A stretch of DNA of 64,000 bases from an uncultured delta proteobacterium (GCA_963724765.1 CAVRVY010000002.1:352001-416000); one strand, 5' to 3'; positions 7,004 through 38,831 are shown, numbered from the stretch's first letter. Notes: generated by a model from the sequence alone, not told the origin. Made by a program: numbers and translations.

Positions 7004-7048
7004 GCCAAGGGGCGACTGAGCCAAGGGGCGACTGAGCCAAGGGGTGAC
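6993..7048 (+). repeat. 16-bp tandem repeat GGGGCGACTGAGCCAA x3 plus a partial copy
   Basis: Exact units 6993-7008, 7009-7024, 7025-7040, then GGGGTGAC. Confidence 0.9.
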
Positions 7049-7417
7049 CGGGCGGCCCGGGCGCATCGCGGCCGTGTCAGCTTCGCCCGCCTCGTCGCTT
7101 CGTCCCACCTGGGCTAGGAGATCCGGATCCTGAAATCGAGCAGTCCATTTTGGCTGCCCAAAAAAAAATTTTCTCTCAGGAGTCCGGTCGCGAGAGGTTG
7201 TACATCCTGGCTTCGTCCCTTCGTCGCCCCGTTTCTTCGTCGCCCAGTGGCTTCACGCTCCGCGCCGGCCTAGTCACCCGGATGCCCGGATACCCCAGAA
7301 GGGCACCCATCTACCAAAATCGCCTAAAAGACCGCGGAAAGCGATCTTGAAAGTGAGAGCTGCTCCTATTAGGTGGGGCAGTGTAGACGCAAACCCACGG
7401 GCGGGCCAGATGCGCCT

Positions 7418-8581: not shown

Positions 8582-9703
<1,122 letters not shown>

Positions 9704-9773
9704 TCTAAACAAGCTAGTTGATAGCGAAACCCAACTGAGTATCGAAATAACCACCGGAGAACATATTCAACCG

Positions 9774-23500: not shown

Positions 23501-24340
23501 ATGGAAGAGGAACGGCTCAAGGCGATTCTGGAAAGCCTGCTGTTTGCGGCGGGTGAGCCGGTGCCGCTCGCGCGGCTGACGGCGGTGCTCGACAACGTTG
23601 TTGCGCGCGAAGCGATCAAAAAAGCGCTGGGCGAAATGCTGCTGGGCTACGGCGGGCGCGGCGTGATGCTTGAAGAAGTCGCGGGCGGCTACCAGTTGCG
23701 CACGCCTAAGGAGCACGCGCTCTACGTGCGCAAGCTGCTCGCCGCCAAGCCGCCGCGGCTCAGCCGTCCGCTGCTGGAGACGCTCGCGATAATCGCCTAT
23801 CGCCAGCCGGTTACCCGGCCCGAAATCGAGCAGTTGCGCGGCGTCGATTCGGGCGGCGTACTTGAAACGTTGCTCGAACGCCGGCTGGTGAGAATCGCCG
23901 GGCGCAAGGAGGCGCCCGGGCGTCCGATCATGTACGCGACCTCGCCGGAGTTTCTCGAGGTCTTCGGACTGCGCGACCTCGACGGGTTGCCCGATCTCGA
24001 AGAGTTCAAGGAGCTGGAGGAGCGCGCCGCGCAGGAAGCGTCCGCCGCGCAGGAAGCATCCGACGTGTCCGCTGCGCAGGCGTCGTTCGAGACGGCCGCC
24101 GCAGCGCGGGAAGGCTCGGGCGGAGACACGCCGCCCGAGCCTTCCCGCGGCGGCGAAGAATCGGCGCCGCCGCGCGGCGCCGAAGCCGCGGATGAGGCGC
24201 CGCTGTCTGGCGACGCGCAGAGCGCGTCGCCAGACACCGCGCCGCCAGCCGTCGCGCCGACGGAGGAGCGGCCTGGGGAGGCGCAGTCGCGGAGCGACTG
24301 CGCCTCCCCAGGCCGCGCGCGCGATGACGAGCCGCAGTAG
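23501..24340 (+). CDS. scpB: Segregation and condensation protein B with a long acidic low-complexity tail
   Basis: LESLLF, VAGGYQLRT, LETLAIIAYRQPVTR, PGRPIMYAT motifs. Confidence 0.95.
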   Translation: MEEERLKAILESLLFAAGEPVPLARLTAVLDNVVAREAIKKALGEMLLGYGGRGVMLEEVAGGYQLRTPKEHALYVRKLLAAKPPRLSRPLLETLAIIAYRQPVTRPEIEQLRGVDSGGVLETLLERRLVRIAGRKEAPGRPIMYATSPEFLEVFGLRDLDGLPDLEEFKELEERAAQEASAAQEASDVSAAQASFETAAAAREGSGGDTPPEPSRGGEESAPPRGAEAADEAPLSGDAQSASPDTAPPAVAPTEERPGEAQSRSDCASPGRARDDEPQ

Positions 24341-24376
24341 ATGTCGTCGCGCGGCGAAGCACATCTAGCTCTCGCG

Positions 24377-27088
24377 CTAGATGTGCTTCGCCGTCGGGCG
24401 CAGGCGCATCCGCGCGTCGACCACTATCGCGCCCTTGCCCGGCGGCAGCACCTTGACCGGATTCAGATCCATCTCGGTCAACTCGGGAATCGCCTCGATC
24501 AGCGCCGAGACACGCTGCAACACGGCGACCAGCGCGCCGCGGTCGCCCGGTGCGGCGCCGCGATAGCCGTCGAGCAGCCGGCCCATCCGCAGTGATGCCA
24601 ACATCTCGCGTGCGTCGATATCGGTAACGGGACTCAGCCGGAACGCGACGTCGTGGATCAGCTCGACCATCACGCCGCCCAAGCCGCACACCAGCAGCGG
24701 GCCGAAAGTCGGGTCGCTGGTGACGCCGACCAGCGCCTCGATTCCGCCCTGCACTTCGCGCTGCAGCAGCAGGCCTTCCAGCACGGCGCCGGCCTTGCGC
24801 GCGCGGTCGGCCAGCGTGACCGCGGCCTCAGCCACGGCGAGCGGTGAGTGCAATCCCATGATCACCCCGCCGATATCGCTCTTGTGCGTGACGCCGGGTG
24901 CGATCACCTTCGCGACCAGCGGATAGCCGATACTATCGGCGACTTGCGGCGCGTCGGCGACCGAGGCGCGCTCGGCCTGCGCGACTTCGATTCCGGCGGC
25001 GCGCAGGAGGGTCGCGATGTCCTCGGGCGCAAGCGAAATCGATCCGCGAGCGTCCTTGAGCACACGATCGACGACCGCGCGCACGGCGCCCATCGCGAAT
25101 GAACTGAGCTCGAGCGCTGCGCCGCGCGGCCGCTCGCGCCATCGGGCATACCGATACGCCGCCGCCAGTACCATCGCGGCGTTTTCCGGAAACGCATATG
25201 ACGGAAGCTTGCCGCGTGCGCCGGCATCAAGCACGGCCGGCGGCCATTTTGAGGACAGGAACACGGTAAGCACGGGTTTGTGTGCCGGCACCTGCGATGC
25301 GCCGCGCGCGATGGCGTCGGCGACAAGGTTGCGCGGCGCCTCGGTGGCCGGGATATAAACCGCCACCACCGAATCGACGTTGGGGTCGGCGCCGACCGCG
25401 GCGATCGCGCGCTCGTACTCCGCGGCACCGGCGGTCGCGGTCAGGTCCACCGGATTGCCGAACGAAGCGCGCGCCGGCAGAAATGTGCGGAGCGTGTCTA
25501 CCGTGATGTCGGCAGGCTGCGGCAGGACCAGGCCCTGCGCTTCGCACGCGTCGGCGAGCAGGATTCCTGGGCCACCAGCGTTGGTAACCACTCCGACGCG
25601 CGGGCCGGCCGGGACCGGCTGCGTCGAGAGCATCGCGACCACGTCGAACAGCTCCATCAGCGTGTTGGTCCGGATCACGCCGGCCTGCTCGAAGAGCGCC
25701 TCGACCGCGACGTCGAGGTTGGCCAGCGCGGCGCTATGGCTGGAGGCGGCGCGCCGACCGGCTGCTGAGCGCCCCGACTTGACCGCGACGATCGGGCGGC
25801 GGCGCGCGACCTCGGGCGCCAGGCGCGCGAATTTGCGCGGATTGCCGACGCTCTCGAGATAGAGCACGACCACGCCGGTGCGCACGTCGTCGAGCCAGTA
25901 GGCGAGCAGGTCGTTGTTGGAGACGTCGGGGCGGTTGCCGGCCGAGACGAAGGTCGAAATTCCGAGCCCGCGGCTGTTCATGTAGTCGAGGATCGCGATA
26001 CCCAGCGCGCCGCTCTGCGAGTACATCCCGATATTGCCGGGCGGCGGCAAGATCGGCGCGAAGGTCCCGTCCAGCCGCACTGCCGGGTCGGTATTGAGCA
26101 CGCCCATGCAGTTCGGTCCCACCATCCGCATCCCCGACGCGCGCACCATCTCGAACAGCCGCTCCTCTTCCGCGCGTCCCGCGGCCGAGACCTCGGCAAA
26201 GCCCGACGTGATCACCACCACGCCATGCACGTGCGCGCGCATGCAGTCCTCGATCGCGCCGTGGACCAGTTGGGCGGGCACCGCGACCAGCGCGAGATCC
26301 ACCGGCGCGCCAATCGCCGCCACGTTCGGGTAGCATCGCAGTCCCATCACCTCGCTGGCGCCGGGGTTCACCGGGTACACCGGCCCATTGAATCCTGCGC
26401 GCTGCAGATTGGCGACCAGCGCGCCGCCGATCTTCGCGCGCGAGCGCGACGCGCCGATCACCGCGACCGAGCGCGGATGGAGCAGCCTGCGGATGCTCTC
26501 GCCGGCCGCGGTCCAGTTGCGCAGCTCGCTCGCCTGGCGCGAGGCCTCGGTCTCGCCGGTCGGAAAGCTCAAGTGGACCACGCCGGCGTCGGTCGAGCGC
26601 TTCACGCGGAAACCGCTCTTGGCGAAAACCTCGAGCATCCGGTTGTTGTCGCCCAGCACGTCGGCCTGGAACTCGGTGATTCCGGCCGCGCGCGCGACGC
26701 GCCCGAGATGGTCGAGCAGAACAGTGCCGATACCGCGTCCCTGATGCTCGTCGAGTACGGCGAAGGCGACTTCGGCGCGCGCCGGTCCGGTGGTGACATA
26801 GCGGCCGACACCGATAAAGCGCTCGTCGGCGCCGGTGCGCAGCGTCGCCACCAGGGCGACATGGCTCGCGAAGTCGATCTCGGTGAAGCGTACGAGGTCC
26901 TGCTCGGTCAGCGAATGCTTCAGTCCGAAGAAGCGGTGGTAAATCGAGTCCTGACTCATGTGGCGGAAGTGATCGGTCAGCCGATCCTTGTCGTCGGCGC
27001 GGATGGCGCGGATATGGATCGAGCCGCCGTCGCGCAGGACCTCGTGCGCGGAATAATTTTTTGCTTCCGGACTGGTATCGTCTGTCAC
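24377..27088 (-). CDS. N-terminal GNAT acetyltransferase fused to an ADP-forming acyl-CoA synthetase-like region (Pat/PatA-type)
   Basis: AEVAFAV...HQGRGIG (GNAT); VAVIGAS, GPNCMG, SQSGALG, SHSAAL, NAGGPG, NPVD, HKSDIGGV, DPTFGP, DLNPV. Confidence 0.92.
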   Translation of the reverse strand: MTDDTSPEAKNYSAHEVLRDGGSIHIRAIRADDKDRLTDHFRHMSQDSIYHRFFGLKHSLTEQDLVRFTEIDFASHVALVATLRTGADERFIGVGRYVTTGPARAEVAFAVLDEHQGRGIGTVLLDHLGRVARAAGITEFQADVLGDNNRMLEVFAKSGFRVKRSTDAGVVHLSFPTGETEASRQASELRNWTAAGESIRRLLHPRSVAVIGASRSRAKIGGALVANLQRAGFNGPVYPVNPGASEVMGLRCYPNVAAIGAPVDLALVAVPAQLVHGAIEDCMRAHVHGVVVITSGFAEVSAAGRAEEERLFEMVRASGMRMVGPNCMGVLNTDPAVRLDGTFAPILPPPGNIGMYSQSGALGIAILDYMNSRGLGISTFVSAGNRPDVSNNDLLAYWLDDVRTGVVVLYLESVGNPRKFARLAPEVARRRPIVAVKSGRSAAGRRAASSHSAALANLDVAVEALFEQAGVIRTNTLMELFDVVAMLSTQPVPAGPRVGVVTNAGGPGILLADACEAQGLVLPQPADITVDTLRTFLPARASFGNPVDLTATAGAAEYERAIAAVGADPNVDSVVAVYIPATEAPRNLVADAIARGASQVPAHKPVLTVFLSSKWPPAVLDAGARGKLPSYAFPENAAMVLAAAYRYARWRERPRGAALELSSFAMGAVRAVVDRVLKDARGSISLAPEDIATLLRAAGIEVAQAERASVADAPQVADSIGYPLVAKVIAPGVTHKSDIGGVIMGLHSPLAVAEAAVTLADRARKAGAVLEGLLLQREVQGGIEALVGVTSDPTFGPLLVCGLGGVMVELIHDVAFRLSPVTDIDAREMLASLRMGRLLDGYRGAAPGDRGALVAVLQRVSALIEAIPELTEMDLNPVKVLPPGKGAIVVDARMRLRPTAKHI

Positions 27089-27133
27089 GATGGTAACCGC
27101 ACTGTCGTTACGGAACTCTAGTTACCGGATTGA

Positions 27134-28339
27134 CTATTTCTGGCTGCGCGCGAGCGCGCTCCGCAATTTTTCCGGCAGCGCCGAGGCGCGCACGAATACC
27201 CATCCTTCCATCAAGCGGCGCGCCGTGCGGTAGACCGTCGCACTCTCGGCGAACCATTCATTATTTTCGCGCCTCACCATCGCGCCGACCACGGTTAGCC
27301 CCGAGGGCTGCGCGATTCGCACCGGGTCGCCGGGCGACGCAGCCGGCCGCGCGATGCGGTTTACCACCGTGCCCTCGATTCGCGACGCGACCGCCAGAGA
27401 CATCGCGCCCGTCAGCGGGACGGCGCGATGCGGCTGGCCGATCGAGATCATGCGCACCGTCACGTCGGCGTGCTCGGCGGCGAGCCTCTCGCCCGCGAGC
27501 GTCCGCGCCTCGCGCGCCGGCGCGACCATCGCGACCTTCGGAATACTGGGGATTCGCGCGGCGGCTTCGGCGGTTTTCGCGATACCCATCCTGAGGCTCG
27601 CGGCGATCCGGATCGCCTCGAGACGCCGCAGCAACGCGCCGTTGGCCTCCAGCTCATCAGGCATCTCGACTCCGCTTGCGCCGAGCGCATCGGCGGCGAC
27701 GAACACGCACGGATTCGCCGCATCCACCATCGAGGCCTCGATTCCGCGCATCCCGTTCGCGTCAAGCGTGTCTATCGGGTTGCCGGTCGGCAGCAGCCTG
27801 CCGGTACCCGCGCCGCCCGGCTCGAGGAAGTCCAGCCTCACTGGCGCACCGGTGCCGGCGACGCCGGGGAGACTGAAGTCGCCGTCCACGGCGGCGCGTC
27901 CGCCGTCGAGCGGGAAGTGCGCGACGATTAGCTTGCGCGTGTTGGTATTGTGGATCCGTACCGTCGCTTCGCCGGCCGCGTCCGCGGCGGAGGCAGTGAC
28001 AAGGCCCTCGTCGACCGCGAACGGACCGACGGCGGACGACATGTTGCCGCAGTTGCCGCTGTAGTCGACCGAGGCATCCTTAACCGAGACCTGTGCGAAG
28101 GTGTAATCGACGTCGGCGCCGGCGCGAGTCGGCGGCCCGATCACGCAAATTTTCGAGAGCGACGAAATCCCGCCGCCCATCCCGTCGAGCTGGCGTCCGT
28201 TGGGATCGGGGCTGCCGATCACGCCGAGAAAGATCGGCGCCCACAGCTCGCGCTCGGCGGGAAGATCGGCCGCACGCAACATCACGGCCTTGCTGGTTCC
28301 GCCGCGCATGAAGACCGCGCGCAATTTGAGCTGCTTCAT
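27134..28339 (-). CDS. PrpF/LigU/Mii-family isomerase (diaminopimelate-epimerase fold)
   Basis: MRGGTSKA, QLDGMGGGISSLSK, NCGNMSSAVGPFA, HRAVPLTG, RTARRLMEG. Confidence 0.93.
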   Translation of the reverse strand: MKQLKLRAVFMRGGTSKAVMLRAADLPAERELWAPIFLGVIGSPDPNGRQLDGMGGGISSLSKICVIGPPTRAGADVDYTFAQVSVKDASVDYSGNCGNMSSAVGPFAVDEGLVTASAADAAGEATVRIHNTNTRKLIVAHFPLDGGRAAVDGDFSLPGVAGTGAPVRLDFLEPGGAGTGRLLPTGNPIDTLDANGMRGIEASMVDAANPCVFVAADALGASGVEMPDELEANGALLRRLEAIRIAASLRMGIAKTAEAAARIPSIPKVAMVAPAREARTLAGERLAAEHADVTVRMISIGQPHRAVPLTGAMSLAVASRIEGTVVNRIARPAASPGDPVRIAQPSGLTVVGAMVRRENNEWFAESATVYRTARRLMEGWVFVRASALPEKLRSALARSQK

Positions 28340-28361
28340 CAGCGCGCTGTTCGACGTCCAG

Positions 28362-29843
28362 CTACGAGGCGGCGCGCGCCGCGGCGCTCGCGCTGTGGCC
28401 GGCGATCCGGCCGAAGACCGCGCCCGACATCAGTCCCGAGCCGCCGGGATAGTTGTTATGGAACAGGCCGCCGACCATCTCGCCGCACGCGAACAGCCCC
28501 GGCATCGGATCCCAGTCGGTGCCGATCACCTGCGCGTGATCGCTGACCTTCACGCCGCCGAACGAGAACGTGATTCCGCCCGTCACCGGGTAGGCGTAGT
28601 AGGGCGGCGTGTCGAGCTTTTGCGCCCAGTTCGATTTCTTAAGCGCGAGGCCCTCTGTATGCATCCCGTCGCGCACGCCAGGGTTGAACGATCCCTTGCC
28701 GGCCGCGGCGTTGTACTCGCCCAGCGTGCGCGTCGCGGCCGTGCGATCGAGTCCGAGCTGAGCGACAAGGCCGTCGAGCGTGTCGGCGACGATCGGCCGG
28801 CCGGTTGCGTAGCGCGGCTCGAGCAGTGCAACGGCCTTGCTGTCGAAAATCTGCCAGCCGACCGTGCCCGGCTGATTGAGGATGGTCCCGCCGAACTTGG
28901 CGTAGGTGTAAAGGTTCTGGTCCTCGCCCTCGTCGACGAAGCGCTGGCCCAGCTTGTTGAGCATCACGCCGTAAACGTAGGAGAGGCGGTTGGTCTTGTC
29001 GGTAAGCTCGCGATCGCCGTAGGGCGGCGCCTCGGCGTCGATCGGTGTCGCATGGCATCCGCTCCATTGCCCCCACGGCATCGCGCCGATCTCCATCGCC
29101 ATGCGCAGCCCGTCGCCCTGGTTATGCCGGGTGCCGCGCACGCGCGCGTGATCCCACGGGCGGCCGAGATACTGCGCGCGCCACGCCATGTTGGCCTCGA
29201 AGCCGCCGCATCCGAGCACCACCGCGCCGGCGCTGATTTCGCGGATCCCGTCGGCGTCGCGCATCAAGACGCCGCAGATGCGCCCCTTGCGATCCTGCAC
29301 CAGGCGCTGCACCGGCGCGCCGTAACGGATTTCGACTCCCGCGCGGCGGGCGATGTTGAACCACATCCGCGAGAGCCCCACGCCCTCATGCGCGGCGCGC
29401 ACGATCGCGCCCTTGGGCCATTTGATCACGTTGCCGACGCGCACGCCGCTCAGCGACAGCGCGAGTTCGAAGGCCATCCCCTGCTCGGCCATCCAGCACA
29501 CCGTCTCGTAGGAGTTCGCGATCAGGATTTGTGAGAGCTCCGGGTCGGTGCGGCCGTCGGTCACGCGCATGAGGTCCTCGCGGAACGCGTCGGCGGGATA
29601 GGCCTCGATTCCCTCCATGAAGCCTGCGACCTCGCGCGCCTTGGGCACCAGGCGCAGCAGGTCGTCGGGACGGTTGAACGCGAAGCGGAACAGGCCGCCG
29701 CTGAAATGAGTGTTGCCGCCGCGGTCGTGCTCGGGGGCCTTTTCCAGCACCAGCACGCGCTCCGCGCCCGCGCCGCGCGCCGAGACACTGGCCGCGAGCG
29801 CTGCGTTGCCCGCTCCTATAACGATAACGTCGTATTCCGCCAT
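28362..29843 (-). CDS. FAD-dependent tricarballylate dehydrogenase (TcuA)-like flavoprotein, paralog 1
   Basis: GAGNAAL, RGGN, GGFEAN, GQRFVDEG, GITFSFGG, NYPGGSGLMSGAVFGR; AAGGAG RBS before ATG 29843. Confidence 0.85.
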   Translation of the reverse strand: MAEYDVIVIGAGNAALAASVSARGAGAERVLVLEKAPEHDRGGNTHFSGGLFRFAFNRPDDLLRLVPKAREVAGFMEGIEAYPADAFREDLMRVTDGRTDPELSQILIANSYETVCWMAEQGMAFELALSLSGVRVGNVIKWPKGAIVRAAHEGVGLSRMWFNIARRAGVEIRYGAPVQRLVQDRKGRICGVLMRDADGIREISAGAVVLGCGGFEANMAWRAQYLGRPWDHARVRGTRHNQGDGLRMAMEIGAMPWGQWSGCHATPIDAEAPPYGDRELTDKTNRLSYVYGVMLNKLGQRFVDEGEDQNLYTYAKFGGTILNQPGTVGWQIFDSKAVALLEPRYATGRPIVADTLDGLVAQLGLDRTAATRTLGEYNAAAGKGSFNPGVRDGMHTEGLALKKSNWAQKLDTPPYYAYPVTGGITFSFGGVKVSDHAQVIGTDWDPMPGLFACGEMVGGLFHNNYPGGSGLMSGAVFGRIAGHSASAAARAAS

Positions 29844-29995
29844 GACGCTCCTTCGCCTGTGTCTCGAATTCAACGCGATCATTGCACAAAAGGACACGCG
29901 CGCGAAAAGCCGCAACGCGTCGGTTCGCGCGCGCGTGTGGAGCGAGTCCGAAAAGCTTTTCTAATTCCTTTTTGTTATCTGAGGATTTTTCTTAT

Positions 29996-30030
29996 CCCTC
30001 CCCTTGTCCAAGGAGAGGGTAGGGGAGAGG
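29996..30030. repeat. REP-like palindrome CCCTCCCCTT-GTCC-AAGGAGAGGG-T-AGGGGAGAGG
   Basis: Hairpin with a duplicated purine arm in the divergent intergenic region; resembles CCCTCTCCC/GGGAGAGGG-type extragenic palindromes. Confidence 0.55.
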
Positions 30031-30051
30031 TCAGAAATCCCGGCGGGCGGA

Positions 30052-30057
30052 TATAAT
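30052..30057 (+). promoter_or_regulatory. Candidate sigma70 -10 box (TATAAT) upstream of the prpB-like gene
   Basis: Perfect hexamer about 60 bp before the ATG in high-GC context; no clear -35. Confidence 0.35.
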
Positions 30058-30114
30058 GCGTCTGGAGCGCGCCGGCGCAAGGCGCCGCGGGGATCTATTC
30101 AGGAGGGCATACGG

Positions 30115-31032
30115 ATGACGTGGCTGACGCAAGCGGATAGCGCGGCACCGGCGGGCGAGCGGCTGGCGAAGCTGTGGGAGCGGCCGGGCATCGTGATGAT
30201 TCCCGGCGCGCATAATGGCCTGGCCGCGATGCTCGCGCGGCGCGCGGGCTTCGAGGCGCTCTATCTCTCGGGCGCGGCGCTGAGCGCGAGCATGGGTCTC
30301 GCCGACCTCGGGGTCATGACCGTCGAGGAGCTGTCGATGTTTGCGCGGATGATCTGCCGCGCCGCAGGATTGCCGCTGATCGTCGATGCCGACACGGGCT
30401 ATGGCGGAATTCTCAACGTGATGCGCGTGGTGCGCGAGCTTGAAGACGCGGGCGCCGCGGCGATCCAGATCGAAGATCAGCTACTGCCGAAGAAGTGCGG
30501 TCATCTGAATGACAAGCTGCTCGCCGCGCCGGAAGAGGCGGCGGCGCGGATCGCGGCGGCGCGCCGCGCGCGCCGAAGCCTCCGCATAATCGCGCGCACT
30601 GACGCGGCAGCGTCGGAGGGAATCGACGGAGCGCTCAAGCGTGCGCGGCTTTACCTCGACGCAGGCGCCGACGCGATTTTTCCGGAGGCGCTGACCGACG
30701 CGGAGACGTTCCGGCGCTTCGCGCGCGAGATTCGCGCGCCGCTGCTCGCCAACATGACCGAGTTCGGCCGCACGCCGTATCTCACCGCGCAGCAGTTCGA
30801 GGAGTTCGGTTTCAAAATGGTTATCTGGCCGGTCTCGTCGCTGCGAGTCGCGGCCAAAGCGATCGGCGAGCTATATGCGGAGCTTAAGGCGAAGGGCACG
30901 GCGGAGGCGATGCTCGATCGGATGCAGACGCGCGCGGAGCTGTACGAGACGATCGGCTACAGCGACTACGAAAGCCTGGATGCGTCGGTCGCAGCCAGCG
31001 TCGTCCCGCCTGATCCGCGCGGGCGCCGCTAG
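30115..31032 (+). CDS. prpB: 2-methylisocitrate lyase (ICL/PEP mutase superfamily)
   Basis: YLSGA, DADTGYG, IEDQLLPKKCGHL, IIARTDA, LANMTEFGRTP, MQTRAELY; AGGAGG RBS before ATG 30115. Confidence 0.88.
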   Translation: MTWLTQADSAAPAGERLAKLWERPGIVMIPGAHNGLAAMLARRAGFEALYLSGAALSASMGLADLGVMTVEELSMFARMICRAAGLPLIVDADTGYGGILNVMRVVRELEDAGAAAIQIEDQLLPKKCGHLNDKLLAAPEEAAARIAAARRARRSLRIIARTDAAASEGIDGALKRARLYLDAGADAIFPEALTDAETFRRFAREIRAPLLANMTEFGRTPYLTAQQFEEFGFKMVIWPVSSLRVAAKAIGELYAELKAKGTAEAMLDRMQTRAELYETIGYSDYESLDASVAASVVPPDPRGRR

Positions 31033-31107
31033 GAGTGCGGGCAGTCGCTACACGATGCGATCGCGCTATACTCGCCCGCACCCTATCGATGACGGGAGTC
31101 GCGTTGG

Positions 31108-32598
31108 ATGCCTTTCTCTTATGACGTAGTCGTGGTCGGTGCGGGTAACGCCGCCCTGTGCGCGGCGCTCGCCGCGCGCGAGTCGGGCGTCAGCGTGCTG
31201 GTGCTGGAATGTGCGCCGCAAGCTGAGCGCGGCGGTAACAGCCGCTTCACCGCGGGCGCGATGCGCGTCGCTTATAGCGGTGTCGACGACCTCGCGCGCC
31301 TGATGCCCGACCTCACCGACGAGGACAAGGCGCGCACCGACTTCGGCGCCTATACCGAGGACCAGTTCTTCGACGACCTCGCGCGCGTCACGCAGTACCG
31401 CACTAACCCCGAGTTGGCCGAGCTGCTGGTTCGCCGCAGCTTCGAGACCATGATGTGGATGCGCACCAAGGGCGTGCGCTTTCAGCCGATCTATGGGCGG
31501 CAGGCGTTCAACGTCGGCGGACGCTTCAAGTTCTGGGGCGGGCTGACGGTCGAGGCGTGGGGCGGCGGGCCGGGCCTCGTCGACGCATTGCACGCGGGCG
31601 CGGCGCATCATGGAATCGAGATCTGGTATCAAAGCCGCGCGCTCGAACTCGAGCACGACGACAGCGGCGTGACCGGCGTCGCGATCCGGCGTGAGGGACA
31701 CACGATGATTGTCGGAGCCAAGGCCGTGGTGCTCGCCGCGGGCGGCTTCGAGGCCAACGCCGAGTGGCGCACACGCTACCTCGGTCCCGGGTGGGATCTC
31801 GCCAAGGTGCGCGGCACGCGTTTTAACACCGGCGACGGAATTCGGATGGCGCTGGAAATCGGCGCGATGCCCTACGGCAACTGGTCCGGATGCCATGCGG
31901 TGGGATGGGACCGCAACGCGCCCGAGTTCGGCGACTTAAGCGTCGGCGATGGCTTCCAGAAGCACAGCTACCCGTTCGGAATCATGGTCAACGGGCGCGG
32001 CCGGCGCTTCGTCGACGAAGGCGCCGACTTCCGCAATTACACTTACGCCAAGTATGGCCGCGTAGTTCTCGAGCAGCCGGGCCAGTTCGCCTGGCAGGTC
32101 TTCGATCGCAAGGTGACGCATCTGTTGCGCGACGAGTACCGCATCAAGCGCGTGACCAAGGTCAGTGCCGACACGCTCGAGGCGCTGGCGGGCAAGCTCG
32201 AGGACGTCGACGCGGCGGCTTTCCTGGACGAGGTCAAAACCTACAACGCCGCCGTCGACACCGGCGTCGAATTCAATCCGAATATCAAGGACGGGCGGCG
32301 CACCCGCGGCCTTGCGGTCGACAAGACCAACTGGGCCAACACGATCGACACGCTGCCGTTCGAGGCCTACGCGGTGACCTGCGGCGTCACATTCACGTTC
32401 GGCGGCCTGCGCGTCGATCAGCAGGCGCGCGTGATCAACACCGACGGCGATCCGATCGGCGGCCTGGCGGCGGCGGGCGAGCTGGTCGGCGGACTTTTTT
32501 ACTTCAACTATCCAGGCGGCACCGGCTTGATGTCGGGTTCCGTGTTCGGGCGAATCGCGGGGACCAGCGCCGCGCGCGCCTCGCTCGAGCGCAAGTGA
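31108..32598 (+). CDS. FAD-dependent tricarballylate dehydrogenase (TcuA)-like flavoprotein, paralog 2
   Basis: GAGNAALCAALAARE, RGGNSRFT, GGFEAN, GRRFVDEG, YAKYGR, NYPGGTGLMSGSVFGR. Confidence 0.87.
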   Translation: MPFSYDVVVVGAGNAALCAALAARESGVSVLVLECAPQAERGGNSRFTAGAMRVAYSGVDDLARLMPDLTDEDKARTDFGAYTEDQFFDDLARVTQYRTNPELAELLVRRSFETMMWMRTKGVRFQPIYGRQAFNVGGRFKFWGGLTVEAWGGGPGLVDALHAGAAHHGIEIWYQSRALELEHDDSGVTGVAIRREGHTMIVGAKAVVLAAGGFEANAEWRTRYLGPGWDLAKVRGTRFNTGDGIRMALEIGAMPYGNWSGCHAVGWDRNAPEFGDLSVGDGFQKHSYPFGIMVNGRGRRFVDEGADFRNYTYAKYGRVVLEQPGQFAWQVFDRKVTHLLRDEYRIKRVTKVSADTLEALAGKLEDVDAAAFLDEVKTYNAAVDTGVEFNPNIKDGRRTRGLAVDKTNWANTIDTLPFEAYAVTCGVTFTFGGLRVDQQARVINTDGDPIGGLAAAGELVGGLFYFNYPGGTGLMSGSVFGRIAGTSAARASLERK

Positions 32599-32622
32599 CT
32601 GCGTGCTCGGCGCCCCAATTCG

Positions 32623-34053
32623 CTACTTGCGGCTGTCCAGCAGGCGCGTGACGATGTCCTTGTATTCCCTGGCCATCGGCGAGCGGTAAAAGCGCTGGCG
32701 CGTGAAGTACGGGTCGCCCGCGTAGAACCATTCGTATTGCAACTGGCGGCTGCCGAACTGCTCGCCGATCATGTCCCACGCGAGTTTGAAGAGTTGCACG
32801 CGATCGCGCGCCGAGGCGTCCTTGCCGCGCAGATATTTTTCCAGGTAGCCGGCGATCTCGGGATTGGCGAAGTCCTTTTCGCTGGGCGTCATGATAAGGC
32901 CGCTGCCGCTGACCTCGCGGATAACCTGGATCGCGCGCACCTGGCATTGCGGGATCAGCACCCATAGCGTCGCCGCGACCGATCGATGCGCCAACTGCTC
33001 GCGCCTGGCGGTCGCGACCTCCTGCGCCGCCGCGCGCACCAATCCGCCCACCAGCTCGACGTTGGCGATAAGCTCGCCCAACTGCGCCTGCACGTGAACC
33101 GCTTCGGTGCGACCGATCGTCTCGGCGATCTGGCAGGCGAGGCCAGCTAGCAGCTTCAGCTTCGCCAGCCCGCGGATGCATCCCTGGAGCTGCGCATAAC
33201 CGGGTCGGCGCACCAGGATGCTGTTGAAGATCGCGATGTCGCGATAGATGAACATCCGCTCCCACGGCACCGTCACGTCGTCGAAAACCGCGAGCGAGTC
33301 TTCCTCGTCGTAGTGCGAGCTCAGCGGGCGGTCGAAATCGCCGCGGCCAGTGTCGTAGGGCTCACGGCAGACGAACTTGAGACCCGGCGCGCCGCACGGG
33401 ATCGCGAAACAGAGCGTGTAGTCCTCCTCGCCCTCGCGCCGCGGATAAAACGGGCCTACCCATAGCTCGTTGGCGAAGGGCGCCAGCGTCGAGAGCATCT
33501 TGGCCCCGCGCACGACCACGCCCGCGTCGGTCTCGCGCACCACGCGGAGCACCAGGTAGGGGTCGGATTGCTCTGCCGGGCCGCGCGAGCGATCTACCTG
33601 CGGATCGACCAGCGTATGCGTCAGGCACCAGTCGCGCTCGCGGCATTCCTCGTAGTAGCGCCGCATGTTTTCGCCCAGGCGCGGGTCGCGCACGCCCAGG
33701 TCGGCGGCGCCGGCGGCGATATCGGTCAGCAACGCGTTGCAGAAATCCGGCATCCGCCCCATCAGGCCGTAAGTGAAATCGGCGCGCATCTGCTCGGCCC
33801 GGATGCGCTGCTCGACCTGCTCGACCGACCCGGCCATCAGGAAACTCGCCGCCACGCGATCGCCGCTTGTGGGCGAGCGAAAGGTCAGCTCCTCGGGATG
33901 CTCGTGCTGGAGGTCGTAGAGCGAGGCGAGCGTCGCGACGATGCCCTGAAACGGCGGATGAGCGGTCACGTCCTTGACCCGCTCGCCGCCGACGTAGACG
34001 ATGCGCTCGTCGCGCAGGCTCTCGACGAATTCCTTGCCGCTGCGGATTCCCAT
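32623..34053 (-). CDS. 4-hydroxyphenylacetate 3-hydroxylase (HpaB)-family flavin-dependent monooxygenase, oxygenase component
   Basis: GERVKDVTAHP, GLMGRMPD, HTLVDPQVDR, GVVVRGAKMLST, FDDVTVPWER, FKLAWD...FGSRQ..YE. Confidence 0.9.
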   Translation of the reverse strand: MGIRSGKEFVESLRDERIVYVGGERVKDVTAHPPFQGIVATLASLYDLQHEHPEELTFRSPTSGDRVAASFLMAGSVEQVEQRIRAEQMRADFTYGLMGRMPDFCNALLTDIAAGAADLGVRDPRLGENMRRYYEECRERDWCLTHTLVDPQVDRSRGPAEQSDPYLVLRVVRETDAGVVVRGAKMLSTLAPFANELWVGPFYPRREGEEDYTLCFAIPCGAPGLKFVCREPYDTGRGDFDRPLSSHYDEEDSLAVFDDVTVPWERMFIYRDIAIFNSILVRRPGYAQLQGCIRGLAKLKLLAGLACQIAETIGRTEAVHVQAQLGELIANVELVGGLVRAAAQEVATARREQLAHRSVAATLWVLIPQCQVRAIQVIREVSGSGLIMTPSEKDFANPEIAGYLEKYLRGKDASARDRVQLFKLAWDMIGEQFGSRQLQYEWFYAGDPYFTRQRFYRSPMAREYKDIVTRLLDSRK

Positions 34054-34086
34054 CGCGTCTCCCGCCGTCCGCGTCTGGTGCGTCTC

Positions 34087-34599
34087 TTAGTGTGTCTGTT
34101 GGGCGCGGGCGAAGAAGGGCGCGAAATACTCGCGCAGGCTTGGCTCGTCGGAGGCGAAGTCAAGCTTGTCGAGTCCGAAGTACGGATCGCTCATCTTCGC
34201 GATCTCCTCGGGCGTGTTATCGACGTAGACCTCGAGCTGATTGCCGTCGGGATCGAGAAAATAGATGCTCCGCGTCACGCCGTGATTGACGGTGAAGCTG
34301 ATCGGCACGCCGCGCTGCTTGAACTCGCGATAGGCGGCGAGCAAATCCTCGGCGCTCTTGAGGCGGAAGGCGCAATGCGCGAGCCCCACGTCCCCCGGCT
34401 TGGGCGCGCCGGCGCCCTCGCCGACCTCGGCCAGAGCGATCTCGTGATGGTCGCGGCGATTGCTCGCCAGGAACACCATCTTGATCTCCGGCAGCTCCTT
34501 CATCACTTCGAGCCCCAGGACTTCAGTGTAGAAGGGGCGCGAACGCTCGAGGCTGCGCACCTTGAGTACGATGTGGCCGATCCGATCTGGACGAATCAT
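34087..34599 (-). CDS. VOC-family metalloenzyme (glyoxalase / extradiol dioxygenase-like)
   Basis: IGHIVLKV, HHEIAL, GLAHCAF, HGVTRSIYFLDPDGNQLE; GGAGG RBS before ATG 34599. Confidence 0.88.
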   Translation of the reverse strand: MIRPDRIGHIVLKVRSLERSRPFYTEVLGLEVMKELPEIKMVFLASNRRDHHEIALAEVGEGAGAPKPGDVGLAHCAFRLKSAEDLLAAYREFKQRGVPISFTVNHGVTRSIYFLDPDGNQLEVYVDNTPEEIAKMSDPYFGLDKLDFASDEPSLREYFAPFFARAQQTH

Positions 34600-34662
34600 C
34601 GCAATCCTCCTTCCGCTCGTGCGCTCGGCTAAACGCATGCAAGCGTTCGCCGGCACGCGCGC

Positions 34663-35802
34663 TCAGTGCAGGTTATAGAGCCGTTTCGCGCCGCCCGCCA
34701 GCACCGCGGCTTCGGTCTCGGGCGGCATCCCCATCTTCTTGATCATTTTGGCCGCGCCCCAAAACCCGTCCAGATGCGGATAGTCGGTCGCCCACAGGAT
34801 GGTATCGGCGCCCAGGTAATCCGCGAGCAGCTTGAGGCTCCTTTCGACCGGCTCGAACGAGATGAAGCACTGGCGGCGATAGATCTCGCTCGGGCGCATC
34901 GAGAGCCCCGTGTCGTTCATGCCCTTGTCGTCGTAATGCCGATCCATCCGATCGAGCCATCCCGCCATCCAGCCGCCGCCCGATTCAAGGAAGGCGACGC
35001 GCAGGCGCGGAAACTTGTCGCACACTCCGCACATGATCATGCTGGTCGATGCCGCGATCATCTCGAACGTATGCGCGACCGCGTGGCGCACTGCGCCGCC
35101 GCGCTTGAACCGATCCATCGCGAGCGTCTCCTGACCGCTCTCGGAGCCGCCGTGGATGCCGATGGCGAAGTCGAGTTCCTGCGCCTCCTCCCATAGCGGA
35201 TAGTAGTCGCGGTCGTGGAGCGGGCGGTCGTTATACGGATTAGGCCGCACGAAGCCGGTGCGAAACCCCAGTTCGCGCCGGACGAAACGCAGTTCGTCGA
35301 TGATTTGTGGGACCGATGACTGCATCGGCAGCATCGCCGCGCCAAACAGCCGGTCGGGGTAGGGCTTGCAGTAATCCGCGAGCCAGCGGTTGTAGGCGCG
35401 GCAGGCCGCCGCCGCGGCGTCCGGGTCTTTCATCCCGCCCAGGAACAGGCCCAGGCTCGGGTAGAGGAAGGCGGCGTCGATTCCTTCGCGGTCCATGTCG
35501 ACGATGCGCGCGTGCGGATCGAAACCGCCCTTGCGCCCTTCGAGGTACGGCATGCGCGTGTCGACCTCGCCGTCGCGCGAGCCGATCGAGCCGAGCACGC
35601 CGAGCGTCGCTGGCTCCTTGCCGCGGCGCCGCAGGCCGAAGTCGAAGCTTTCGTCGACGAAGAAGCTCTCGTTGCCTTCGGCGTCGATGACGAGCTTGGG
35701 GCAGTGGTCGCGGTACTTGGGGTCGATGTACCGTTCCCACAGATCGGGCGGCTCCAGAATGTGGCCGTCCGCGTCGATGACGTTGTATATACGGGCCCTC
35801 AC
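34663..35802 (-). CDS. Amidohydrolase_2-family metal-dependent hydrolase/decarboxylase
   Basis: DADGHILEP, AYNRWLADYC, IGIHG, AFLESGGGW, WATDYPH; GAGGTG RBS before GTG 35802. Confidence 0.9.
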   Translation of the reverse strand: MRARIYNVIDADGHILEPPDLWERYIDPKYRDHCPKLVIDAEGNESFFVDESFDFGLRRRGKEPATLGVLGSIGSRDGEVDTRMPYLEGRKGGFDPHARIVDMDREGIDAAFLYPSLGLFLGGMKDPDAAAAACRAYNRWLADYCKPYPDRLFGAAMLPMQSSVPQIIDELRFVRRELGFRTGFVRPNPYNDRPLHDRDYYPLWEEAQELDFAIGIHGGSESGQETLAMDRFKRGGAVRHAVAHTFEMIAASTSMIMCGVCDKFPRLRVAFLESGGGWMAGWLDRMDRHYDDKGMNDTGLSMRPSEIYRRQCFISFEPVERSLKLLADYLGADTILWATDYPHLDGFWGAAKMIKKMGMPPETEAAVLAGGAKRLYNLH

Positions 35803-35894
35803 ATACACCTCGTTGCGGAAGACGTTATGTTTGAAGCTTAGCAAAGCGCCGCGCGCCGGGTATACAGAATGTAGCGATCTGCGTGGCGTGCCGG

Positions 35895-37019
35895 TCAGCC
35901 CCAGATCTCGCGCGCGACCTCCACGCACAGCCGGATTTTCGCCGCCTCGTCCTCGACCGTGACCTTGTTGCCCGGCGCCGTGCTGGCGAAACCGCATTGT
36001 GGGCTTAGCGAGAGCTGGTCGAGGCCGATATATTTCGCGGCCTCGTCGATACGCATCTTGAGCAGCTCCTTGGGTTCGAGCTCGGGGAACTTGGAGCTGA
36101 TCAGTCCCAGCACGACGGTCTTGTGCCTGGGCACCAGGCGCAGCGGCTCGAAAGTGCCGGCGCGCGGCGTGTCGTATTCGAGGAAATAGGAATCGACGTT
36201 GATCTTGTTGAACAGCGTGTCGGCGACCAGGTCGTAGCCGCCCTCGGCGCTCCAGTGGCTCTGATTGTTGCCGCGGCAGATATGCATCGCGAGATGCAGC
36301 CCGGCCGGGCGTCCCGCGAACGCCGCGTTCATGATCTCGGGGTAGGTTTCGAGCAGGAGCTTGCGGCCGTCGTCGCCGCGGCGCGCAAGATACGTCCAGC
36401 TCGAGGTGTCACTCAGCGAGGCAAGCGTAGTCTCGTCGATCTGCACGTAACGGCATCCGGCCTCGTAAAGCGCGGCAAGCTCCTTGCGAAAGGCGTCGAC
36501 CACGTCCTCCCAGAAAAGATCGAGCTCGGGATACGCCTCGCGGCTGATATGCTCGCGCCCGGAGCGGAGATGCAGAATGGTGGGTGAGGGGATGGTCATC
36601 TTGGGCGTGCGCGAGGTGAGCGAGCGGAGAAACTTGAACTCGGCGGCGTGAATCGGCGCCTTCCATTTGAGCCGCGCCTCGACGGTCGGAATTATCAGCG
36701 GCAGCTTGTGCCCCTGGCGATCGACGAAGGCCCATTCCTGACCCGAGGTGTCGTAGGTTGCAGAGACCCCGCCCAGTCCGCCGTAAAAGCCCATGTAAAA
36801 TACCGCGCGCCGGTACTCGCCGTCGGTTATCGATTGGAGTCCGAGGCTTTCCTGGAAGTTGACCACGTCGCGAATCGCGGCGTCCTCGACCGCGCGGAGA
36901 TCCGTGGCGGAAAGTTTGCCGGCTTCGCGATCGGCGCGCGCGCTCAACAGTTGCGGCGGTCTAAGGAAACTGCCGACGTGATCGGCGCGAAACGGCGGAT
37001 TGTGCGGTGCGGACGCCAT
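35895..37019 (-). CDS. Cobalamin-independent methionine synthase C-terminal-domain-like (MetE-like/YxjH-type) zinc enzyme
   Basis: ADHVGSFLRP, TDGEYRR, Zn-ligand motifs HICRGN, LEYD, SPQCGFAS; single barrel only (374 aa). Confidence 0.88.
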   Translation of the reverse strand: MASAPHNPPFRADHVGSFLRPPQLLSARADREAGKLSATDLRAVEDAAIRDVVNFQESLGLQSITDGEYRRAVFYMGFYGGLGGVSATYDTSGQEWAFVDRQGHKLPLIIPTVEARLKWKAPIHAAEFKFLRSLTSRTPKMTIPSPTILHLRSGREHISREAYPELDLFWEDVVDAFRKELAALYEAGCRYVQIDETTLASLSDTSSWTYLARRGDDGRKLLLETYPEIMNAAFAGRPAGLHLAMHICRGNNQSHWSAEGGYDLVADTLFNKINVDSYFLEYDTPRAGTFEPLRLVPRHKTVVLGLISSKFPELEPKELLKMRIDEAAKYIGLDQLSLSPQCGFASTAPGNKVTVEDEAAKIRLCVEVAREIWG

Positions 37020-37066
37020 ACGATACCTCCCGTCCGGAGACTCGACGCGTTGCGGCGCGTGATCGA

Positions 37067-37094
37067 TTCGATGATCCGATTTCGATGATCCGAT
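37067..37094 (+). repeat. 14-bp tandem direct repeat TTCGATGATCCGAT x2 in a divergent promoter region
   Basis: Read directly: 37067-37080 and 37081-37094. Confidence 0.7.
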
Positions 37095-37209
37095 TCGCTT
37101 GTAATACTAAGACTCAACGCGTGCGATTGAAAACCGGTTGCGCCCGCTTGCGCGGCGAGTCTGGCGCGATGAACTCTACATCGATGAGCTTGCACGCTGA
37201 GTCTGACTA

Positions 37210-38547
37210 GTGGCTGAAACAGAATTTCGCGCCGCCCGGCCCGATGAACTCCCCGGGCATGAGGCATCTTCGTGGCGTCCGCGATGGCTCAATCGCAACC
37301 TGGTCTGCCTGTTCGCGGGACGCGGGCTGCGCAGCGCCTCACAGGCCTACCTGGTGATTGTGGTGCCGCTCTATCTCGCGGCGCTCGGCTACAACGCTAC
37401 GCATATCGGATTGATGTTCGCGATCGTGGCGATGGCCAGCGCCGTGATGGCCGCGCTCACCGGGATCATGTCGGACCGCTTCGGGCGCAAGGCGATGCTT
37501 ATCGTGATCTCGCTGATGACTGCGGCGGGCGGCGCGGTGTTCGCCTTCTCGACCAGCTTTGTTGTGCTGACGGTGGCCGCGGCCTTAGGCACGATCGGCC
37601 GCGGTGGCGGGGCCGGGAGCGCCGGCGCATTCGGTCCCTATTATCCCGCTGAGCAGCCGCTGATCGCCGAGCAGGTTTCCGACTTCGATCGCACCACGGT
37701 CTTCGGCGCGCTGTCATTCGTCGCGGTGCTCGGGGGCGCGGCCGGATCGCTGCTCGCATGGACGCCGCGGCTGATGCAACTGGGCTTCGGGTGGCCAATT
37801 GTCGAGGGCTACCGCGCGCTGTTCATCCTGACGGCCGCGCTTGGGCTCGCGATGGTGGCGGTGGTGATACCCGTGCGCGAGTATCACAGCGCACCGGGAG
37901 CGCCTCGGCACGAAAGGGCGCGGACCGGCCCACTGTTACTCGGGCTTTCGCGCGCTTCGTGGCGGCTGGTCTCGCGCTTCATGGTCACCGCCGCGACCAA
38001 TGGGCTTGCGATCGGGATGCTCGGGCCGCTGCTGGTCTACTGGTTCTACCGTCGCTTCGGGGTCGACGCGGCGGAAATCGGCAAGCTGTATTTCGTGCTC
38101 AACCTGGTCGCCGCCGCGCCCTACCTGCTGGCGGGGCGGATGGCCGCGCGGTTCGGCTCGGTGAAAGCGGTCGTTTTTTGCCGTGCGGTCGCCTCAGTAT
38201 TGCTCGGGGTGATGGTAGTGATGCCGAGCTTCTGGCTGGCGGGTCTGCTGTATGGCGCGCGGATGATTTTCAACACGCTCTCGATCCCGGTGCGCCAGTC
38301 ATTCCTGATGGGCGTGATTCCGCCCGCCGAGCGCTCCGCCGCGGCCGGGATGGCGAGCTTTCCCGCGCAGGTCGGCTCATCGATAAGCCCGTACATGGCA
38401 GGCTATCTGATGCAGCAGGTGTCGCTGGAGTTGCCGCTTGAACTGGCAGCGCTGCTCCAGGCGCTGAACGCGACGCTCTACTATTTCTTTTTTCGCGCGG
38501 TGCGGCCGCCCGAAGAAATCAGCGCCGACACCGGCGAGCGACTGTGA
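37210..38547 (+). CDS. Major facilitator superfamily transporter
   Basis: About 12 hydrophobic segments; motif A GIMSDRFGRK. Confidence 0.92.
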   Translation: MAETEFRAARPDELPGHEASSWRPRWLNRNLVCLFAGRGLRSASQAYLVIVVPLYLAALGYNATHIGLMFAIVAMASAVMAALTGIMSDRFGRKAMLIVISLMTAAGGAVFAFSTSFVVLTVAAALGTIGRGGGAGSAGAFGPYYPAEQPLIAEQVSDFDRTTVFGALSFVAVLGGAAGSLLAWTPRLMQLGFGWPIVEGYRALFILTAALGLAMVAVVIPVREYHSAPGAPRHERARTGPLLLGLSRASWRLVSRFMVTAATNGLAIGMLGPLLVYWFYRRFGVDAAEIGKLYFVLNLVAAAPYLLAGRMAARFGSVKAVVFCRAVASVLLGVMVVMPSFWLAGLLYGARMIFNTLSIPVRQSFLMGVIPPAERSAAAGMASFPAQVGSSISPYMAGYLMQQVSLELPLELAALLQALNATLYYFFFRAVRPPEEISADTGERL

Positions 38548-38651
38548 GCCATCCCGCCAGTGCCGGCACTGTTAGACCCGGTGGCCGACCATTCGGAGAT
38601 TAGTTGCCGTCTGTTCGAAGATTAATTGCTGGCTGTTCGAGAGTTGCCGAG

Positions 38652-38831
38652 TTACGCGGCCCAGCGAGGCGAACGATCACCAGATTGTGCCTTCACGTCA
38701 GACAGGTTCACTGCCAGTTCGGTGGCATCGCGCCTCTCGAAACGTCCGGGCTCAAGCAGATAGCCAAGGAATGATCCGATCACGGAGATGATCACGATAC
38801 CGAGCAGAAGCACTGGAACTGAATTAACCAT
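38652..38831 (-). CDS. 59-aa single-TM small protein (MVNSVPVLLLGIVIISVIGSFLGYLLEPGRFERRD...), absent from the ORF track
   Basis: Manual translation; GGGAGG RBS before ATG 38831; TAA at 38652-38654. Confidence 0.6.
   Translation of the reverse strand: MVNSVPVLLLGIVIISVIGSFLGYLLEPGRFERRDATELAVNLSDVKAQSGDRSPRWAA

Follow-up and report, generated by a model that had tools for sequence, protein, structure and literature searches.

The window analyzed here is a stretch of 64,000 nucleotides (nt) from the genome of an uncultured delta proteobacterium (GCA_963724765.1, CAVRVY010000002.1:352001-416000; G000:C2:352001-416000 in our numbering). At positions 27134-32598 it carries four genes, which encode two TcuA-like flavoproteins, a PrpF-family isomerase and a PrpB-like lyase. 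The genes are arranged as two divergent units, as had been described in a first-pass annotation of the window, and the open reading frames and family assignments agree with that description. On the minus strand, TcuA-like 1 (TcuA1) is a flavin adenine dinucleotide (FAD) flavoprotein of about 493 amino acids (aa) with a match to PF00890. Its gene, at positions 28362-29843, is located upstream of the gene for a 401 aa double-bond isomerase of the PrpF family (27134-28339; PF04303, 393 bits). On the plus strand, a 305 aa C-C lyase that is PrpB-like, i.e. 2-methylisocitrate-lyase-like, is encoded at positions 30115-31032, and the second FAD flavoprotein, TcuA-like 2 (TcuA2, 496 aa), is encoded downstream of it at positions 31108-32598. 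The TcuA1 open reading frame extends over positions 28362-29915 of the minus strand. The ATG at 29843 is the likely start codon, because residue 25 is the first to match the NF006130 model and because the start region is conserved across the five aligned loci. The PrpB-like reading frame opens at position 30004 and its likely start is the ATG at 30115, which has the sequence AGGAGG ahead of it; the bases ATGAC-TGGCT of this start region are conserved in the same way (5/5 aligned loci).

TcuA1 and TcuA2 are 49% identical and are the sole two members of their family in the genome. Both pass the broad NCBI TcuA model NF006130 (PRK08274; cut-off 369) with scores of 560.2 and 605.3, respectively, and this is the reason that their relatives are named "tricarballylate dehydrogenase" in public records. 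Both fail the strict TcuA equivalog model TIGR02485 (cut-off 372.55), with scores of 272.8 and 295.4, and the TcuA1-type protein of L080, a locus in an alphaproteobacterial metagenome-assembled genome (MAG), is also below the cut-off (268.8). Public records list close homologues under Candidatus Binataceae. Identity with the Salmonella TcuA protein, which is encoded in a tcuR-tcuA-tcuB-MFS operon (L174), is approximately 38%. The nearest solved structures of both flavoproteins are the soluble flavocytochrome fumarate reductases. In an alignment to flavocytochrome c3, the histidine at chain position 365 is retained as H263, and Tyr313, Phe/Thr and Tyr468 stand at the chain positions that we take to be Arg402, His504 and Arg545.

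The two paralogues differ in the segment after a GGN motif (THFSGGLFR in TcuA1, SRFTAGAMR in TcuA2). Both segments, which the first-pass annotation had pointed out, are present in the translations and represent clade signatures, i.e. GGNT.[FY]SG..FR for the TcuA1 type and GGN[ST]..[FY]T[AG]GAMR for the TcuA2 type. In a FastTree phylogeny of 168 family members with Salmonella TcuA as the root, the TcuA1 clade has 23 leaves and contains all PrpF-linked flavoproteins together with one representative of unknown context; support at its most recent common ancestor is low (0.188). The TcuA2-type proteins form a separate clade of 102 leaves with a support of 0.985. Fused forms were sought, and three longer TcuA-family representatives (P0185, P0132 and P0142) gave FAD-binding domains only. 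A genome of the same class as the window's genome (G291) displays five TcuA-family paralogues on five contigs, which are 44-48% identical to TcuA1.

The isomerase is the only PrpF-family protein encoded in the genome. It scores 342.4 on the prpF model TIGR02334 (cut-off 440.55) and 309.8 on the 4-oxalomesaconate (OMA) tautomerase model NF033377 (cut-off 440), thus it fails both; linked relatives score 318-363 on the former. Among solved structures, 3-methylitaconate isomerase (Mii, 3g7k; 299 bits) and PrpF (2pvz; 295 bits) are about equally close, and LigU (6p3j) is more distant with 183 bits. The residues that align to K73 and C107 of the Shewanella PrpF (alignment to 2pvz), for which PMC5690661 describes catalytic roles, are retained in the isomerase and are invariant in a five-sequence alignment of its clade.

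The lyase passes the methylisocitrate lyase model TIGR02317 (402.3; cut-off 354.4) and fails a second model, NF008455 (295.3; cut-off 353). Among solved structures, 4iqd is the nearest (3e-95), and the E. coli and Salmonella PrpB proteins come next. The scores with the PrpB-type enzymes are 322 and 231 bits vs. 174 bits with 2,3-dimethylmalate lyase (3fa3; 3.5e-50). The catalytic loop reads KKCGH, which includes the catalytic Cys, and the identical motif is found in 4iqd. Alignments to the E. coli and Salmonella PrpB show identity at three motifs, D-L-G, VDAD.G and IEDQ, which were compared as motifs rather than by residue number. In the P. aeruginosa PrpB, the acidic residues that bind Mg2+ are D60, D87, D89 and E117.

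The usual partners of these enzymes are missing from the genome, which is 5.4 Mb in length, consists of four contigs, and is 96.98% complete with 5.16% contamination. Profile searches of the whole genome gave no TcuB: the best TIGR02484 match has 37.9 bits vs. a cut-off of 246.6, and the open reading frame concerned is GlpC-like. No TcuB above cut-off is present in G301, G302 (Afipia broomeae) or G303 either. There are no matches to PrpD or to the MmgE/PrpD family. No PrpC is above the cut-off, the two matches below it being a type I GltA and a divergent citrate-synthase-like protein. AcnD is not found; the only large aconitase scores 808 on the AcnD model (cut-off 1420) and is an AcnA (1310 on the AcnA model, cut-off 945), and one LeuC is present besides. 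There is also no isocitrate lyase in the genome, where partial matches are limited to the PrpB-like gene and a second superfamily member on contig 3. The absence of PrpC, PrpD, AcnD and TcuB that had been proposed from the window is therefore borne out over the whole genome.

The MmgE/PrpD family is likewise absent from two further carriers of the cluster, G174 (98% complete) and G704; G705 has one copy and G301 has ten. The window's genome displays four matches to the methylmalonyl-CoA mutase family (CoA, coenzyme A), thus propionyl-CoA can be channelled through these mutases. With the mutases present and with PrpD, AcnD and any above-threshold PrpC missing, the PrpB-like lyase is not part of a normal methylcitrate cycle, and no such cycle is encoded elsewhere in the genome; the pathway suggested in the first-pass annotation thus withstands one of the checks that had been set on it. 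Similarly, since TcuB is missing, the two flavoproteins are expected to work without it.

Linkage of the four genes was followed in two independent samplings. In the first, one genome per species was scanned and the 80 loci most TcuA2-like were kept; in the second, metagenomes were scanned with an alignment of the PrpF clade, which gave another 80 loci. This alignment was headed by the L080 protein in order to keep the second sampling from being restricted to Binatia. All four genes are found in three of the 80 TcuA2-ranked loci, namely L008 and L010, which are in MAGs labelled as delta-proteobacterial, and L080. L010 belongs to G174, which shares its family with the window's genome. Three of the four genes are present in L009, where two short open reading frames occupy the PrpB position and represent a broken PrpB region. 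Among the metagenome loci, all four genes are found in five (L093, L096, L117, L129 and L168), a TcuA1-type gene in 23 (58-94% identical over at least half of the query), a TcuA2-type gene in 10 and a PrpB-like gene in 8; these counts are minimum values, since PrpF has less than 1.6 kb of upstream sequence in 27 of the 80 loci.

The gene order differs between clusters. In Binatia the PrpF and TcuA1 genes are divergent from the PrpB and TcuA2 genes. In L096 the genes are colinear in the order TcuA1, PrpF, PrpB, TcuA2, and in L093 and L080 the TcuA2 gene is divergent from TcuA1, PrpF and PrpB. Among partial clusters, L169 has TcuA1 divergent from PrpF and PrpB, and L094 has the order TcuA1, PrpF, TcuA2. 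The full set thus displays at least three distinct gene orders, and its carriers include Binatia and an alphaproteobacterial MAG.

The lyases that adjoin the PrpF clade fall into three lineages with mutual identities of 38-43%, and the catalytic Cys is kept in all. The window type has KKCGH and passes TIGR02317; the L080 type has KRCGH and fails it (290-298 vs. 354); the L142 lyase has KRCGH and passes. By locus, the L010, L117, L169 and L142 lyases pass (388-413) and those of L080, L093 and L096 fail (290-298). PrpB-like proteins of at least two lineages have been recruited to the cluster. Such repeated recruitment, together with the reordering of the genes, makes the linkage hard to explain without a shared function. 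Conservation of the linkage in other genomes had been set as a check on the pathway suggested in the first-pass annotation, and the linkage is indeed conserved, in differing gene orders.

In a sample of the window's phylum, a match at E ≤ 1e-60 was found in 12 of 301 genomes, and the divergent pair was found only in the window's genome and G174. A search of 401 Pseudomonadota for TcuA1 at E ≤ 1e-130, with three candidates scored per genome, returned only G301 itself and one protein of 48% identity, with no additional TcuA1-type gene. TcuA1-type genes (60-61% identity) are also found on two plasmids, i.e. pPAN3 of Paracoccus pantotrophus and a Paraburkholderia plasmid. In both, the TcuA1-type gene is followed by an MmgE/PrpD-family gene, with a carboxylate-type transporter of the TRAP (tripartite ATP-independent periplasmic) or MFS (major facilitator superfamily) type beside it and no PrpF within 9 kb. 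MmgE/PrpD-family genes are found near the PrpF clade as well: 16 of the 80 metagenome loci have them, as does L169, and L080 has two copies. The conserved core is therefore a TcuA1-type gene with PrpF and/or a PrpD-like gene, and only some loci have the lyase and TcuA2 in addition.

A soil metatranscriptome library, X19, contains contigs with about 92-94% identity to parts of TcuA1, PrpB, TcuA2, the HpaB gene and the Pat-like gene (for the last two, see below). These are contigs from relatives and not reads, and DNA may be present in the library, thus they are a weak hint of expression of the module. A search of sequencing runs gave shares of 0.48 or lower, and four of the runs (X1, X2, X19 and X20) were followed further.

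Given the observed gene content, conserved linkage, family memberships, retained catalytic residues and missing partners, the four genes may make up a single catabolic module, whose substrate would be a saturated, carboxylate-rich acid similar to a substituted succinate or to tricarballylate and would be degraded without CoA thioesters and without the membrane partner TcuB. We give this reading an even chance. The substrate, the electron acceptor and every chemical step are proposed by analogy with TcuA and with the AcnD/PrpF cycle as treated in PMC5690661. The TcuA1-type flavoprotein would take two hydrogens from beside a carboxylate to give an aconitate-type alkene. The PrpF-clade isomerase would then move or flip the double bond to give the isomer that a hydratase accepts. 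Water would be added by a hydratase encoded elsewhere, which in this genome would be the single AcnA and in other lineages the neighbouring MmgE/PrpD-family protein. The PrpB-type lyase would split the resulting 2-methylisocitrate-like product to pyruvate and succinate. The TcuA2-type flavoprotein would act on a second isomer or on a related acid; its 65-75% identity across phyla and its usual occurrence alone would fit a product that needs no dedicated follow-up enzymes. A methyl-branched tricarballylate would be a suitable substrate, as desaturation at the CH2-CH end would give 4-methyl-aconitate, a known PrpF substrate, and the isomerase, aconitase and lyase chemistry would then be that described in PMC5690661.

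In its most specific form, this proposal is tentative and can be considered a possibility rather than a probability. It holds that soil Binatia, which are abundant, and scattered Proteobacteria have an undescribed route for a methyl-branched saturated tricarboxylate of the butane-1,2,3-tricarboxylate type. The TcuA1-type protein would form 4-methyl-aconitate and PrpF would convert it to 2-methyl-cis-aconitate, so that the lower methylcitrate cycle is entered without propionyl-CoA, CoA or TcuB. Each flavoprotein would use its own isomer, the two perhaps forming a heterodimer, and the substrate might come from oxidised terpenes or other polyacids. The first-pass annotation had proposed a pathway of this kind. 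The conserved linkage and the lack of a methylcitrate cycle speak for it, and three points refine it: the core is the TcuA1-type gene with PrpF, the frequent occurrence of TcuA2-type genes without the other three makes an obligate heteromer unlikely, and the flavoproteins do not pass the strict TcuA model.

Several observations weigh against a single module and against this substrate. In 76 of the 80 TcuA2-ranked loci, the TcuA2 orthologue (about 65-75% identity) is found without a TcuA1-type gene, this PrpF clade or a window-type PrpB. Orthologues with about 70% identity are widespread in Proteobacteria. Afipia, Pseudolabrys, Bradyrhizobium, Dongia, betaproteobacteria and two actinomycete MAGs are represented among these loci, and the neighbours of TcuA2 in them vary, e.g. 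a TctC receptor, an aldehyde dehydrogenase, a thiamine pyrophosphate (TPP) enzyme and an amidase. Where a PrpF-clade locus retains 1.6 kb or more of upstream sequence, a TcuA-family open reading frame is present in only 22 of 53 cases, plus L140 as detected by tblastn. Two loci, L112 and L119, have a PrpF that is 71-72% identical to that of the window, with full flanks, and display no TcuA-family gene. Many PrpF-clade loci hold instead a flavin mononucleotide (FMN)-dependent dehydrogenase, a class II aldolase, a short-chain dehydrogenase/reductase (SDR) and hydantoinase B. No transporter or regulator is conserved across the clusters, and no hydratase gene is found within the Binatia cluster. 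We know of no natural source of butane-1,2,3-tricarboxylate. In addition, PMC5690661 describes the AcnA of Salmonella as the poorer aconitase on 2-methyl-cis-aconitate.

The first alternative to be weighed is the plain use of tricarballylate or trans-aconitate. The flavoproteins would form aconitate, possibly the trans isomer, the PrpF-clade protein would be an aconitate isomerase that supplies cis-aconitate to the tricarboxylic acid (TCA) cycle, and the lyase would be accessory, e.g. an isocitrate lyase, or unrelated. We consider this unlikely, but it has several points in its favor. NF006130 names both flavoproteins TcuA; TctC-type tricarboxylate receptors are common neighbours; the TcuA1-PrpF pair is often without a lyase, as the metagenome counts for the TcuA1-type and PrpB-like genes (23 and 8 of 80) indicate; and the window's genome lacks an isocitrate lyase, a role that the lyase could fill. 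However, both flavoproteins fail TIGR02485 and are only 38% identical to the Salmonella TcuA, and the recruitment of at least two lyase lineages argues that a lyase is needed. The lyase motif can be read both ways. In PMC11982470, KRCGH is given as the PrpB motif and KKCGH as the isocitrate lyase motif, which would favor an isocitrate lyase here, yet the same source reports that a swap of the motif left the specificity of the E. coli PrpB unchanged. KKCGH is moreover present in 4iqd, and the lyase passes the methylisocitrate lyase model.

A dicarboxylate route is a rather improbable second alternative. Methylsuccinate or 2,3-dimethylsuccinate would be desaturated to citraconate, mesaconate or dimethylmaleate, followed by a Mii-like isomerisation, hydration, and cleavage to pyruvate and acetate or propionate. 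Eubacterium barkeri ferments nicotinate by a pathway whose lower part is similar. The dicarboxylate route is consistent with the top solved relative of the isomerase, which is Mii, although the margin over PrpF is slight and the isomerase is equally close to the true PrpF. Similarly, 2,3-dimethylmalate lyase is among the solved relatives of the lyase, but the PrpB-type enzymes are far closer and TIGR02317 is passed. TRAP transporters of the DctP/DctM type adjoin the TcuA1-type gene in Paracoccus, whereas the MmgE/PrpD-family and TctC neighbours at other loci fit tricarboxylates as well.

It is very unlikely that the genes are part of an aromatic ring-cleavage pathway together with the adjacent genes for an HpaB-like monooxygenase, a VOC protein and an Amidohydrolase_2 protein, in which case the PrpF-like protein would be an oxalomesaconate tautomerase or isomerase. 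HpaB and VOC genes do adjoin TcuA2 in L008, L009, L010 and L117, and HpaB is present in L168; however, the non-Binatia clusters L080, L093, L094, L096 and L169 lack this block. Rieske oxygenase genes are found near the cluster in L080 and L093, but a LigB-type or gallate-type ring-cleavage dioxygenase was not seen. The isomerase scores 310 bits on the OMA tautomerase model, and in L042 a TcuA2 orthologue precedes a true OMA tautomerase; the window's isomerase is nevertheless below the cut-off of that model, and LigU is more distant from it than PrpF or Mii.

Chance association, with PrpB and PrpF serving an ordinary propionate (methylcitrate) pathway and the flavoproteins being unrelated neighbours, is close to refuted: catabolic genes do cluster loosely in many genomes and the neighbours of TcuA2-type genes are very variable, but the four-gene set recurs across lineages in different orders, the enzymes of the upper methylcitrate cycle are missing while methylmalonyl-CoA mutases are present, and the Binatota preprint 10.1101/2020.09.14.296780 assigns a methylmalonyl-CoA route to Binatales.

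The possibility that TcuA1 and TcuA2 form a heteromer was addressed by complex prediction. The pair has a score of 0.50, and the best of three controls has 0.00. A mark of 0.50 is reached by 58 of 80 solved complexes vs. 2 of 110 mismatched pairs, counts that hold only roughly since the analysis used its own alignments; seven of the 80 solved complexes and both mismatches reach the mark with scores at 0.60 or under. Contact agreement between prediction runs is at least 89% and partner pLDDT (predicted local distance difference test) is at least 90. The model gives weak support for a pairing of the two proteins, and the predicted contact may mirror the homodimer interface of the family because the chains are paralogues. 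The first-pass annotation had raised a heteromer; an obligate one is unlikely because TcuA2-type genes are so often found without the other three.

The divergent intergenic region (29844-30114), between the starts of TcuA1 and the PrpB-like gene, displays two conserved short elements. One, AT[CA]ATTGCACAA, is at positions 29878-29889, approximately 35 nt upstream of the TcuA1 start, and its core is invariant in five of five aligned Binatia-type loci. The other, GATATAAT, is at positions 30050-30057 and is found in the window, L008 and L129; the L117 version is GATAGAAT. The elements may have a role as promoters, and the one at 29878-29889 may be a promoter or an operator. A consensus scan of the intergenic region gave no promoter-like site. 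Over positions 24000-38800 the scan found one promoter-like site vs. 1.6 expected and 11 terminator-like sites vs. 9.3 expected, i.e. no signal. No Rfam matches were found in the entire window, and a tRNA scan gave a single doubtful call with a four-base anticodon, which is within a helicase open reading frame.

A block of genes at positions 32623-37019 on the minus strand is convergent with TcuA2. It encodes an HpaB-like flavin monooxygenase (TIGR02309, 403; cut-off 480), a VOC/glyoxalase-family protein, an Amidohydro_2 protein and a MetE-like protein (PF01717). It is followed by an MFS transporter gene on the plus strand (37210-38547), which was considered as a transporter for the module and rejected because it is conserved only in L008 and L009. 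On the other side, 45 bp downstream of PrpF, positions 24377-27088 of the minus strand encode a 903 aa Pat-like protein acetyltransferase with an N-terminal GNAT domain followed by the domains of an NDP-forming acyl-CoA synthetase, an order that is the reverse of that in the Salmonella Pat. This gene was also rejected as a part of the module, being conserved at the position only in L008 and L168. At the start of the window, positions 1-7400 have a low GC content (52-60% vs. 63-70% elsewhere) and few long open reading frames, one of which has a DUF5906 domain and the others tested no Pfam match. This stretch, beside folD and glycine-cleavage genes, looks like the remnant of a mobile element.

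Other contexts of these families were encountered as well. A recurrent neighbourhood of the PrpF clade, probably betaproteobacterial, is displayed by L098, L100, L111, L118, L136 and about 30 other metagenome loci. It comprises an FMN-dependent 2-hydroxyacid dehydrogenase, two MFS transporters, a cpYpsA-family protein and a 218 aa protein without a Pfam match, and further TctC receptors, a class II aldolase, an SDR and hydantoinase B, with a TcuA1-type gene in some cases. In a Rhodospirillales MAG (L042, positions 9986-12552), a TcuA2 orthologue (71%) is followed 3 bp later by the true OMA tautomerase gene (NF033377, 497 > 440), which is a pairing of the TcuA and PrpF families different from that in the window. 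In the megaplasmid of Ruegeria pomeroyi DSS-3 (L173, positions ~8944-10402), a TcuA2 orthologue (70%) matches in two pieces with no annotated gene and may be a pseudogene; it is preceded by genes for a TPP-binding enzyme, two large FAD oxidoreductases, an aminotransferase and a trimethylamine-methyltransferase-family protein.

If the proposed module is correct, a free acid that a flavoprotein desaturates directly can supply the lower half of the methylcitrate cycle. Many genes named "tricarballylate dehydrogenase TcuA" would work without TcuB and probably on other substrates. For the Binataceae, widespread both in soil and in peat, this would add a carbon source that is absent from pathway maps. 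Annotation would need correction as well, since the presence of PrpB here would be no sign of propionate oxidation via methylcitrate.

The module consists of known enzyme families in an undescribed combination, without the partners that define known systems. Literature searches, covering titles and the openings of abstracts, found no description of this gene combination, in keeping with the earlier view that it is not a described pathway. Four known systems can be compared with it. The isomerases of gallate and protocatechuate 4,5-cleavage (GalD and LigU, 6p3j) are similar in that they belong to the PrpF family and act on unsaturated tricarboxylates, and the Binatia loci have aromatic-type neighbour genes. 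Unlike these, the window's isomerase fails the OMA tautomerase model (310 < 440), and LigU is the most distant among the solved relatives listed. The aldolase of the 4,5-cleavage pathways is from another family.

The lower nicotinate fermentation of Eubacterium barkeri (3g7k and the 3fa3 family) employs a PrpF-family isomerase, a hydration and a C-C lyase of the isocitrate-lyase superfamily, and is not known to involve a flavoprotein desaturase. The pairing of isomerase and lyase is found in the window as well; however, the window's lyase is PrpB-type and not dimethylmalate-lyase-type, and the host is of an aerobic soil lineage.

In the tcuRABC system of Salmonella enterica, the FAD flavoprotein TcuA desaturates a saturated tricarboxylate to aconitate. 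The window's flavoproteins are of the same broad family (NF006130), but at 38% identity to TcuA they fail TIGR02485. TcuB, TcuC and TcuR are absent, and there are two paralogous flavoproteins with an isomerase and a lyase attached.

The AcnD/PrpF-dependent 2-methylcitrate cycle of Shewanella oneidensis, as described in PMC5690661, likewise relies on an isomerase of the PrpF family, whose catalytic Lys and Cys are the same, on a housekeeping aconitase, and on a lyase of the PrpB type that forms pyruvate and succinate. Its lower half is identical to that of the pathway proposed for the window. Unlike that system, the window's genome lacks AcnD, PrpD and any methylcitrate synthase above the cut-off, and the isomerase is below the prpF equivalog cut-off (342 < 440.55). 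Entry into the shared lower half would be by flavin-dependent desaturation and not from propionyl-CoA.

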